Below, piece after piece: positions 18,623 to 19,468 of a stretch of 29,058 nt of DNA. The notes below the pieces were generated by a model. It saw nothing but the letters and a program-made list of their open reading frames with translations. It did no database searches and had not been told where the DNA came from. Position numbers and translations under genes: made by a program. This DNA comes from Escherichia coli (GTDB lineage Bacteria > Pseudomonadota > Gammaproteobacteria > Enterobacterales > Enterobacteriaceae): the NCBI RefSeq assembly GCF_003334315.1, contig NZ_QOWR01000058.1. The stretch is one strand, 5' to 3'. Every line of letters begins with the position of its first letter. Positions within the stretch are counted from its first letter, which is position 1.

Positions 18623-18669
18623 ATAGCAATCAAACCGAAGCCACATATGCGCGGCCAGATTGTTGACAA

Positions 18670-18790
18670 AGGGCGCTTTGTTCATGCCGGATACGGCATG
18701 AACGCTTTATTCGGTCTACAAAAGCAGGCAAATTCAATATATTGCAGAGATGATGTAGACACTGGCAAGCGTAGCGCATCAGGTAATTTT
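18670..18790. repeat. Degenerate REP-like palindromic remnants downstream of mngB
   Basis: REP-related strings (gccggatacggcatgaacgctttattcggtctac; ggcaagcgtagcgcatcaggta) just after the mngB stop. Read by eye, approximate. Confidence 0.4.
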
Positions 18791-19120
18791 GCGTTTATCT
18801 TCACTCTCAAGCCACGTATATGTGGCTTTATTTTTAACAAAATAATAACCCTGGGTGAGTTAATTATAATATAATTATAAGTTAACTAAATGTTAATATT
18901 GGCGGGGTGGATTTATGCCTTTATTAGTAATCCTGAAACTCTGCGTCGTATTAGCCAGTGACCAAAAAAAGAATTAAGGTCAACCGTGCTGTTTTTGCTT
19001 CGTCTCTTTTTATCTTTAATTGCCAACCGAAACTAATTTCAGCCTTATAACTCACACATTTTAAACATAAATGTCACTAAAGTTACCTTATTGAAACATG
19101 ATTAACATAATTTGTAGGAA

Positions 19121-19186
19121 TTGATATTTATCAATGTATAAGTCTTGGAAATGGGAATCAAAAAGAGATAAATTGTTCTCGATCAA
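19121..19186 (+). promoter_or_regulatory. cydA promoter region with two FNR-type boxes
   Basis: TTGATatttATCAA (perfect TTGAT-N4-ATCAA, about 19121..19134) and TTGTTctcgATCAA (about 19173..19186), centres about 52 bp apart, about 290-340 bp upstream of cydA in a long AT-rich region. cydAB is known to be FNR/ArcA regulated. Confidence 0.45.
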
Positions 19187-19468
19187 ATTGTCTGAAAGGC
19201 GGTAATTTAGCTATAAATTGATCACCGTCGAAAAATGCAAATTTGCTTCAACAAAAACCTGTTTATTGTAAGGATTTTGCGGCGTAATATATACGTGGGA
19301 TCAATTTGAGTTTTTATTAACATGTTTGCAACCTTTCTTTACGCCGTTTTTGTGTGCATTCACATGGTATGATGAAAGTGTTCAAACAAATTTCTATTGG
19401 GGCATGCGTGTGACCCTTTCTAACGGGGTTCACTCTCGGAGTCTTCATGCGATGAGCAAGGAGTCATG

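Follow-up and report, generated by a model that had tools for sequence, protein, structure and literature searches.

The locus analysed here is the intergenic region between mngB and cydA of Escherichia coli, located in a stretch of 29,058 nucleotides that we refer to as the window. The mngB gene ends at position 18622. In the ATGATG at the beginning of cydA, the second ATG (19469) is the conserved start codon, so the spacer comprises positions 18623-19468:

18623..19468, + strand: mngB-cydA intergenic spacer, the cydAB regulatory region and leader (ORF and annotation boundaries)

The first-pass annotation, made from the sequence alone, had described this spacer as 846 bp long and strongly AT-rich. 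This is correct, since its G+C content is 36.4% compared to 51.3% for the whole window. The composition is uneven: the upstream part (18623-18835), made up of a REP/BIME remnant and a hairpin, has 43.7% G+C, the central part (18836-19400) only 31.5%, and the last 68 nt 54.4%. The spacer is 99.8% identical to K-12-type E. coli genomes and differs from MG1655 (E. coli K-12) at 2 bases, A for C at 19156 and T for G at 19191, which are shared by 0 of 5426 complete E. coli genomes. A second E. coli allele, found in about 41% of the genomes, has a different upstream neighbour and is about 80% identical in the promoter-proximal part.

The part of the spacer next to mngB carries the following elements:

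18684..18787, unstranded: decayed BIME, a pair of REP elements (REP pattern matches)
About 18684-18719, + strand: Y-type REP copy (5 of 34 positions off consensus, by eye)
18761-18783, - strand: Z-type REP copy (pattern match with one mismatch)
18715..18743, + strand: promoter-like TCTACA-17-TATATT inside the BIME (consensus scan)
18809..18835, + strand: hairpin AAGCCACGTATATGTGGCTT followed by a T run (terminator scan and palindrome)

The two REP copies form an inverted pair just past the mngB stop, with an IHF-like ATTCAATATATTG between them and a palindrome at 18680-18703. At 6372-6445, the window contains an intact BIME with the same arrangement of a Y-type and an inverted Z-type REP; here the Z-type pattern matched a second time (6423-6445), and an exact copy at 6372-6405 validated the Y-type consensus. 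The spacer element differs from other E. coli BIME/REP sequences in that its Y copy is decayed and bears promoter-like hexamers. Based on in vitro binding of the RpoD holoenzyme in a SELEX screen, the same hexamers have been reported as a "constitutive promoter" of the mngB>cydA spacer, for which H-NS is flagged as well (Shimada 2014). Judging from its sequence, the hairpin at 18809-18835 resembles an intrinsic terminator and probably marks the end of mngAB transcription. Together with the decayed REP/BIME element, it would close the mngAB unit upstream of the cydA control region, which contains the following sites:

18869..18899, + strand: ArcA binding site I, three direct repeats, ATATAATTATAAGTTAACTAAATGTTAATAT (predicted site 770081-770111, peak 770055; Park 2013)
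19048..19099, - strand: ArcA binding site II (predicted site 770260-770311, peak 770262; Park 2013)
19121..19134, unstranded: FNR site 1, TTGATATTTATCAA, perfect consensus match, centre at -53.5 of P1
19173..19186, unstranded: FNR site 2, TTGTTCTCGATCAA, one mismatch, centre at about -1.5 of P1
19181, + strand: P1 transcription start with a 288-nt leader, calculated from the published -53.5
19213..19232, + strand: conserved block ATAAATTGATCACCGTCGAA, a 75% direct repeat of the FNR site 2 region (repeat search)
19262..19297, + strand: conserved downstream promoter, start G19297, 172-nt leader (mapped start)
19314..19344, - strand: ArcA binding site III, within the transcribed leader (predicted site 770526-770556; Park 2013)

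We searched the window for the FNR pattern, the inverted repeat TTGAT-N4-ATCAA, at no more than one mismatch. Five such sites were found in the whole window compared to 1.0 expected, and none of 100 shuffles reached this number. The first-pass annotation had pointed out two FNR boxes in the spacer, one of them perfect, about 52 bp apart. Both are present, 52 bp apart from start to start, and both are published cydAB sites: they are tabulated as bound PWM FNR sites at 770333 and 770385 (U00096.2), with a ChIP-seq summit at 770404/5 (Myers 2013), which corresponds to about 19192 of the window after subtraction of 751212. The ChIP-seq comparison suggested with the first annotation has thereby turned out positive. 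FNR site 1 is listed at position "-53.5" (Table 1 in Myers 2013), which sets the P1 start at 19181 and consequently the centre of FNR site 2 at -1.5. Site 2 therefore overlaps the -10 region and the start of P1, including a conserved -10-like hexamer, TAAATT (19169-19174), and the tandem sites (-53.5 and about -1.5) are positioned to occlude this promoter. All 18 Enterobacteriaceae-type loci have FNR site 1 (at no more than one mismatch) between -341 and -355, 14 genera share the GATCAA half of site 2 without any change, and pairs of FNR sites with a spacing of 51-52 bp were seen as far as Yersinia. The ATAAATTGATCACCGTCGAA block is nearly invariant in 14 genera as well and, in Citrobacter werkmanii, deviates from the FNR consensus at no more than one position; by its sequence, it may be a third, candidate FNR/CRP-family-like site.

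ArcA ChIP-seq identified three regions with predicted sites inside the spacer (Park 2013), so this published data set agrees with the proposed ArcA control, too. The AT-rich tract (18836-19400) thus holds direct-repeat sites occupied by ArcA in vivo. Site I is located directly upstream of the first of two small ORFs (see below), and site III coincides with a conserved TTATTAAC..TTTG.AACC block found across genera. The spacer has been published as a five-promoter region with an H-NS flag, and according to the literature ArcA acts at cydAB by disrupting H-NS. A transcription start at 770509 has flanking sequences identical to those of the window (Kim 2012) and corresponds to 19297, where an anaerobic sigma-70 ChIP peak is also found; another sigma-70 peak maps to 18827. 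The promoter block at 19262-19297, in which the two E. coli alleles share 96% identity, is also conserved in other genera and is probably the published P5. Cotter 1997 and Govantes 2000, as cited in PMC3688515, PMC3798270, and PMC3037301, place the cydAB promoters P1-P5 under the control of FNR, ArcA, and H-NS, with phosphorylated ArcA lifting H-NS silencing at scarce oxygen and FNR repressing without oxygen; the combination of both effects therefore results in a microaerobic expression maximum. Applied to the window, H-NS would silence the AT-rich stretch (31.5% G+C), a documented target of this protein with three ArcA sites, and phosphorylated ArcA would relieve this silencing. Once oxygen is absent, FNR at the tandem sites would block P1 and neighbouring promoters, while the conserved downstream promoter with its start at 19297 follows these sites.

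Compared to the cydAB regulatory region of K-12, this is the same locus, to which the FNR boxes, the three ArcA regions, the sigma-70 peaks, and the 19297 start all map; the only difference is the private bases 19156 and 19191. The multi-promoter FNR/ArcA/H-NS control of cydAB proposed from the sequence agrees with the published ChIP-seq sites, the five promoters, and the H-NS flag. This control architecture is already known, and our analysis rediscovers it. Since transcriptional control of cytochrome bd-I is a textbook case, confirming the FNR boxes adds nothing new.

The first-pass annotation had also put forward two short ORFs as possible leader peptides, or else as chance ORFs in AT-rich DNA. 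Both ORFs are present in the window:

18915..18977, + strand: ORF1, 20 codons, MPLLVILKLCVVLASDQKKN (start at NC_000913.3 770904), judged a chance ORF
19404..19469, + strand: ORF2, 21 codons (start at NC_000913.3 771393), judged a chance ORF within a conserved RNA element

The + strand of the spacer contains six ATG ORFs of at least 20 codons, compared to 3.9 +/- 1.6 in dinucleotide shuffles, of which 80/500 had six or more. A single ORF is preceded by an SD-like sequence (shuffle mean 0.3), and 133/500 shuffles contained at least one. These counts are within the shuffle distribution and agree with the second of the two proposals. For neither ORF did we find the conserved frame and peptide of a translated small ORF, or a Shine-Dalgarno sequence (SD) at a clearly suitable distance and numbers above chance. 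Bacterial leader peptides and regulatory uORFs include the his, trp, and phe leaders and mgtL. The two ORFs resemble them as short ORFs in a long 5' region, with the ORF2 stop overlapping the start of the main gene. Unlike leader peptides, they lack a conserved frame, a conserved peptide, and regulatory codons, there is no downstream terminator/antiterminator alternative, ORF1 lies off the mapped transcripts, and ORF2 has no usable SD. The comparison with annotated catalogues was likewise negative: both are unannotated in the K-12 RefSeq entry, which lists the small genes ybgU and ybgV (2669-2792 of the window), and neither appears among the listed matches in the sORF table of Stringer 2021.

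The region around ORF2 is conserved in its own right. Three elements can be distinguished at the end of the cydA leader:

19399..19405, + strand: GGGGCAU box, contains the ORF2 ATG, invariant in Enterobacteriaceae
19410..19433, + strand: leader hairpin H1, GUGACCC / loop / GGGGUUCAC (per-sequence folding and covariation)
19438..19468, + strand: near-invariant RBS-proximal box CGGAGUCUUCAUGCGAUGAGCAAGGAGUCAUG with the SD AAGGAG at 19458-19463 (cross-genus comparison)

The first box reads GGGCAU(U) in Yersiniaceae, Hafniaceae, and Morganellaceae, and has no ATG there. H1 was predicted as a single hairpin at the same position in all 31 orthologues folded (31/31; mean z -2.4). Its sequence and length vary (31-79 nt between the boxes), while the pairing is kept: compensatory changes were found at 7/9 pairs in a MAFFT alignment and at 9/9 in a model-fitted alignment, and with the former only 0-2 of 500 shuffles equalled the observed covariation measures. 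H1 thus behaves as a structured cis-acting leader RNA, with pairs maintained by compensatory substitutions. The CGGAGUCUUCAUGCGAUGAGCAAGGAGUCAUG box shows hardly any change between E. coli and Yersinia, Photorhabdus, or Arsenophonus, and is at least 99% identical in 5414/5426 E. coli genomes. Its SD is predicted to be mostly paired (P(unpaired) 0.22), and the motif GGAGUC-N4-UG occurs twice, at a decoy AUG (19447) and at the cydA AUG. Covariation is shown by H1 only, since the SD-sequestering and GGGCAU:AUGUU helices are invariant and therefore beyond a comparative test. By itself, the E. coli element had no significant thermodynamic stability (z = 0.37), and the whole P1 leader had z = -1.95. 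A covariance model of the leader element matched cydA leaders only, and the element was found throughout most Enterobacterales.

An unguided MAFFT alignment combined with RNAalifold missed the long hairpin in Yersinia-type leaders because of misalignment, and per-sequence folding with the covariance model recovered it. At E <= 1, Rfam 15 matched nothing in the leader, for E. coli and four divergent loci; its only hits, a weak one to ES036 (18728-18745) that we put down to chance and an IS009 fragment, fell outside the leader. We also considered a very small hairpin, CU(U)CAU-GCG-AUGAG, in which an A-U pair in one clade corresponds to C-G in the other, but dropped it because of nine exceptions among 33 sequences and because the switch is essentially one evolutionary event. 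Pairing of the SdhX sRNA (13061-13161) with the leader was no better than with shuffled leaders.

We consider it extremely unlikely that ORF1 codes for the small hydrophobic protein MPLLVILKLCVVLASDQKKN. The 20-codon hydrophobic ORF and its SD-like sequence do exist as first described, but a role as small protein or leader peptide finds no support, and the region is not conserved. An SD-like GGGGTGGA (18904-18911) precedes the ATG by 3 nt, with marginal spacing of its GGTGGA, but one SD-preceded ORF is obtained in 27% of the shuffles. The reading frame is intact and unchanged in three diverged genomes with the first allele, and the ORF1 region is present in 3178/5426 complete E. coli genomes; however, the other 2248 (41%) lack homologous DNA, as do the second E. 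coli allele and each of 40 further Enterobacterales loci. The sigma-70 peak at 18827 and the SELEX promoter at 18715-18743 are located upstream, so there may be some transcription across ORF1, and one of the promoters P2-P4 could lie upstream of it as well. Against this, both P1 (19181) and the mapped start at 19297 are downstream of ORF1, the terminator-like hairpin (18809-18835) stands between it and the promoter-like site further upstream, and ArcA site I abuts it. The hydrophobic run extends over only about 14 residues, and K-12 has no annotation at this position. ORF1 is therefore judged a chance reading frame and not a leader peptide. The possibility that ORF2 is a translated upstream ORF, whose stop at the cydA ATG couples to or gates cydA translation, is likewise very unlikely. 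Its ATG is invariant in Enterobacteriaceae, its TGA (19467-19469) shares the A with the cydA ATG and overlaps the cydA start in E. coli, Citrobacter, and Superficieibacter, and every cydA transcript carries it, whether initiated at P1 or at 19297. But the ATG is conserved because it is located in the conserved leader RNA element, and what follows it is not: in the relatives, the ORF from this ATG has 5-35 codons in three frames with differing stops, and in 13/18 other loci with a GGGCATG box it terminates at another position or in a different frame (5-7 codons in six, 14-17 in four, and 25-35 in three). The frame is broken already in close genera by hairpin indels that are not multiples of three, and in Yersiniaceae, Hafniaceae, and Morganellaceae the box persists as GGGCAUU, which lacks the ATG. 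Codons 3-10 fall within the hairpin with RNA-type covariation. Since the GGGG is just 1 nt from the ATG, there is no SD at a working distance. ORF2 is also missing from the K-12 annotation and from the Stringer 2021 sORF matches listed. Of the original description, the 21 codons and the TGA overlapping the cydA ATG thus stand, whereas the preceding SD and the leader peptide do not. The conservation check across Enterobacteriaceae had the same outcome for both ORFs, with the frame of ORF2 not kept and the DNA of ORF1 absent. Nucleotide conservation at ORF2 is better explained by RNA structure, and we take ORF2 for a chance frame within this conserved element rather than for a leader peptide.

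Two other explanations for the conservation of the last ~75 nt were considered. CsrA could bind the leader at GGA motifs (cGGAg, aaGGAg) and control cydA translation. Such motifs occur twice in E. coli and three times in Yersinia-type leaders, one of them within the SD, and in csrA mutants of Salmonella and E. coli both cydA ribosome-protected fragments (RPF) and cydA RNA are lower. But in E. coli, CLIP-seq gave no CsrA peak on cydA, which also failed to co-purify and was absent from both the predicted and the crosslinked targets. In the E. coli csrA mutant, cydA translation efficiency (log2 -0.09, not significant) and half-life (8.5 vs 8.2 min) are unchanged. The effect is therefore on RNA abundance and probably indirect, and based on these published data we rejected CsrA binding to the leader GGA motifs as highly unlikely. 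Alternatively, the segment could be conserved as DNA, for example as a transcription factor site or promoter element. In favour of this, ArcA site III is already located inside the transcribed leader, and the invariant boxes yield no covariation signal. Yet H1 still pairs although its sequence varies and its length differs (31-79 nt between the boxes), and each of its pairs shows compensatory changes. This is a signature of selection at the RNA level, or at least of single-strand structure, and the invariant box holds the SD and the start codon, whose function is exerted by the RNA. We therefore regard conservation as DNA as improbable.

Taken together, we are confident (with a probability of about 0.9) that the spacer is the known multi-promoter, oxygen-responsive control region and leader of cydABX, with ORF1 and ORF2 as chance frames and a conserved leader RNA element. 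More tentatively, and short of being probable, the last ~75 nt (19396-19468) may represent a new cis-regulatory RNA of most Enterobacterales that sets cydA translation initiation or RNA polymerase pausing, with ORF2 as an accidental by-product. The GGGCAU box, the covarying hairpin, and the near-invariant 30-nt box, which contains a decoy SD/AUG besides the real SD, would then tune one of these two steps. The leader RNA might sequester the SD and start codon, perhaps in response to a small RNA, a protein, or temperature. Leaders that sequester the SD are known from RNA thermometers and translational operators, and hairpins also act at hairpin-dependent pause sites. The cydA element resembles SD-sequestering leaders in having the covarying H1 immediately 5' of a box able to pair with the SD, and differs from them in matching no Rfam family and in its invariant SD helix. 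With respect to pausing, a consensus pause, G-10 Y-1 G+1, reportedly occurs at starts. Gre-resolved pauses are described on a Salmonella cydA template of the promoter plus 50 bp. Our literature searches found no published account of a cydA leader, UTR, sRNA, Rho, or covariation.

For the two small ORFs, the verdict of chance frames spares follow-up work. Regulation of cydAB has been studied almost wholly at the level of transcription initiation, and a conserved element at the ribosome binding site would add a post-transcriptional layer. This would concern cytochrome bd-I, the oxidase that supports E. coli and Salmonella at low oxygen and during stress by nitric oxide, H2O2, and sulfide, also within the gut and host tissue.

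The gene content of the window (gltA, sdhCDAB, sucABCD, mngRAB, cydABX, ybgE, ybgC, tol-pal and the lysT tRNA cluster) is that of a K-12-like E. coli. Since collinearity with MG1655 is lost at both ends (before ~10850 and after ~28853), the source is another strain. mngB ends at 18622 and cydA starts at 19469, the second ATG of an ATGATG whose first ATG is absent in most other genera (tcaagATG there), so that the mngB-cydA spacer measures 846 bp. It equals the MG1655 sequence save for two bases, 19156 (A for C) and 19191 (T for G); adding 751989 or 751212 converts window positions to NC_000913.3 or U00096.2, respectively. 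The first-pass annotation had described a long, AT-rich spacer with two FNR boxes and two candidate small ORFs, and as an observation this is confirmed. The G+C content is 36.4% compared to 51.3% for the whole window, though unevenly distributed (43.7% in 18623-18835, 31.5% in 18836-19400, 54.4% in the last 68 nt).

Features of the mngB-cydA spacer (window coordinates)
about 18684-18719, Y-type REP of a decayed BIME
18761-18783, inverted Z-type REP of the same BIME
18809-18835, terminator-like hairpin and T run, 3' of the BIME
18869-18899, predicted ArcA site I
18915-18977, + strand, ORF1, 20 codons
19048-19099, predicted ArcA site II
19121-19134, FNR site 1
19173-19186, FNR site 2
19297, mapped transcription start
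19314-19344, predicted ArcA site III
19404-19469, + strand, ORF2, 21 codons
19410-19433, hairpin of the conserved leader element

The two FNR boxes lie 52 bp apart, exactly where they had been placed, and FNR-type sites of such quality are five-fold enriched in the window. Both are listed as FNR sites (770333, TTGATATTTATCAA; 770385, TTGTTCTCGATCAA) beneath a ChIP-seq peak with its summit at 770404/5, window 19192, in a study that gives the FNR site position as -53.5 and classes cydAB as directly FNR-repressed (Myers et al. 2013). With this position, +1 of the FNR-repressed promoter P1 falls at 19181, and the second box, at -1.5, overlies a conserved TAAATT, a -10-like hexamer. Among 80 cydA loci (one genome per species), all 18 of the Enterobacteriaceae type carry an FNR site with no more than one mismatch at -341 to -355; the GATCAA half of the second site does not vary, and pairs spaced by 51-52 bp are seen again in Yersinia. 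The two bases that differ from MG1655, at about -25 (between FNR site 1 and P1) and about +11 of P1, fall in the core of the regulated promoter and represent private or induced changes: neither base combination occurs in any of the 3157 E. coli genomes with the 80-bp segment (best identity 97.5%). Another block, ATAAATTGATCACCGTCGAA (19213-19232), is a 75% direct repeat of the FNR site 2 region, 45 bp further downstream. It is near-invariant across 14 genera, and the Citrobacter werkmanii copy differs from the FNR consensus at no more than one position; centered at about -71.5 relative to the 19297 start, its position would suit a class I activator site. Further FNR-consensus matches occur in coding sequence, a perfect one in sucC (TTGATCGAAATCAA, 11607-11620) and one with a single mismatch 170 bp into cydA (TTGTTTGGTATCAA, 19640-19653).

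Three ArcA ChIP-seq regions have been reported upstream of cydA, with the predicted sites I to III (Park et al. 2013). Published σ70 ChIP peaks map to 18827 (aerobic) and 19297 (anaerobic), and a transcription start at 770509 corresponds to G19297, giving a leader of 172 nt (Kim et al. 2012). We infer that this start is the published P5; its promoter block and ArcA site III are conserved in the compared loci. For this '847 bp spacer', Shimada et al. (2014) reported several RpoD-holoenzyme peaks, named TCTACA-17-TATATT (18715-18743), flagged H-NS and cited five promoters, and ArcA activation of cydAB has been described as displacement of H-NS. The proposed multi-promoter control by FNR, ArcA and H-NS is a correct interpretation of the region, and one already known from published work. 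The natural isolate LR-31 (NZ_AP027520.1) carries an IS1A within the spacer, and IS1 and IS5 insertions in the ArcA/FNR region upstream of cydAB have been reported to sweep through experimental-evolution populations (PMC3203608).

The first ~210 bp of the spacer are not control DNA in the usual sense but hold the decayed BIME; the window also contains an intact one (6372-6445). The terminator-like hairpin and a segment just past the mngB stop (repeat copies at 18809-18841 and 18638-18670, respectively) form a 73% direct and also an 89% inverted repeat that brackets the BIME, and it looks as if the REP pair inserted into, or duplicated, the original mngB terminator. A 75-aa 'hypothetical protein' (WP_001324497.1) called by PGAP at 18647-18874 in some E. 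coli, but not in K-12, spans this remnant and is probably spurious. TTAACA-17-TATATT (10/12, minus strand, 18896-18868), the best promoter-like match of the spacer, overlaps ArcA site I and is directed away from cydA. The aerobic σ70 peak falls between it and the plus-strand site at 18715-18743, and a divergent or antisense transcript from the spacer is possible.

E. coli possesses two old alleles of the promoter-proximal region, represented by window 19087-19400 and by NZ_CP031343.1 (allele 2). Alignment of the spacer is confined to its final ~375 bp in ~41% of complete genomes, at ~80% identity (58-96% per 50-bp window); in cydA and the final 70 nt of the leader the alleles are 98-100% identical. 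Upstream of allele 2 lie hypothetical genes beside a glmS/glmL methylaspartate-mutase cluster, not mngB, and its FNR site 2 has two mismatches.

Both small ORFs are present as described, but the idea that they are functional is not supported. The ORF1 region occurs in 3178 of 5426 complete E. coli genomes, and blastn with 18623-19120 gave no match in 40 other Enterobacterales loci or in allele 2. Furthermore, ORF1 directly follows ArcA site I, lies upstream of both P1 and the 19297 start, and has the terminator-like hairpin upstream of it; its unchanged state in three diverged allele-1 genomes carries little weight at >97% identity. As for ORF2, its ATG is kept in Enterobacteriaceae but its frame is not (5, 6, 7, 14, 16, 17, 25 or 35 codons in three frames in relatives), other families retain its GGGCAU box without the ATG, and a GGGG 1 nt from the ATG is no working Shine-Dalgarno (SD) sequence. 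On its plus strand the spacer contains six ORFs that begin with ATG and reach 20 codons or more, compared to 3.9 ± 1.6 in shuffled sequences; one of them has an SD-like motif (shuffle mean 0.3). No gene is annotated between mngB and cydA in K-12 RefSeq, although that catalogue covers the neighborhood, listing the validated small genes ybgV and ybgU in the gltA-sdhC spacer (2669-2792, minus strand). Neither position is listed in the accessible part of the Stringer 2021 sORF tables.

The sole possibly new item at the locus is a conserved leader RNA. From E. coli to Superficieibacter, the final ~75 nt of the leader hardly differ, and the ends of this element, a GGGCAU box and CGGAGUCUUC(A/C)UGCGA(U/G)GAGCAAGGAGUCA, are conserved to Yersinia, Serratia, Hafnia, Edwardsiella, Photorhabdus, Xenorhabdus, Providencia and Arsenophonus. 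The segment between the boxes varies in sequence and length (31 to 79 nt) and is predicted as a single hairpin in all 31 sequences in which both anchors were found (mean z -2.4; 30 below -1). In an unguided MAFFT alignment of 15 Enterobacteriaceae, seven of the nine hairpin pairs show compensatory changes, and the values obtained are equalled in 0-2 of 500 shuffles. This alignment was used to build a covariance model, which matched a single place in the window and 38 Enterobacterales loci, each time with the match ending at cydA codon 2; the Vibrio, Shewanella, Acinetobacter, Pseudomonas and Erwinia/Pantoea loci gave no match. When the alignment is fitted to the model, which biases it towards the structure, all nine pairs show compensatory changes. 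Of 5426 E. coli genomes, 5414 carry the 79-nt element at 99% identity or more; immediately upstream of it, the two alleles diverge by 20-40%. Covariation supports the existence of this putative RNA element, for which we found neither an Rfam match nor a report in the searchable literature. Leaders of the Vibrionaceae genera Vibrio, Photobacterium and Grimontia (loci L044-L050, L054 and L065) carry a small hairpin of their own in the last 40 nt before cydA, which the Enterobacterales model does not match. Positioned directly 5' of the SD, it has a conserved loop, UCAGCC (e.g., GUGUC-UUCAGCC-GACAC), and stem changes that look compensatory (GCGUC/GACG, GUCGUC/GGCGA).

RNAalifold proposed two further helices, GAGUCUUC..UGC with GCA.AGGAGUC, which would sequester the SD, and GGCAU with AUGUU of the start codon. 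Neither of these predicted helices ever varies in the sequences compared; folding of the transcript from 19297 predicts an SD that is largely paired (P(unpaired) 0.22). In published data, cydA RNA and RPF levels fall in a csrA mutant, in Salmonella as well. Control of the leader by CsrA is unlikely, given no cydA CLIP-seq peak and unchanged translation efficiency and half-life in a csrA mutant. For SdhX, predicted pairing with the leader is no better than with shuffled leaders. The motif GGAGUC-N4-UG occurs twice in 19438-19471, 22 nt apart (GGAGUCUUCAUG, GGAGUCAUGAUG), at a decoy AUG (19447) and at the real cydA start. Preceded by an SD-like GGAG of its own, the decoy AUG opens a mini-ORF of two codons, AUG-CGA-UGA (19447-19455). 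Conservation extends to the repeat but not to this mini-ORF, which has CUG instead in Yersinia-type leaders and lacks the stop in several genera. Both copies would fit the consensus pause, G-10 Y-1 G+1. Gre-resolved pauses have been reported on a Salmonella cydA template with 300 bp of promoter and 50 bp of coding sequence. Most likely, the leader element would either modulate ribosome access to the SD and AUG of cydA, or pausing at it may couple transcription to translation.
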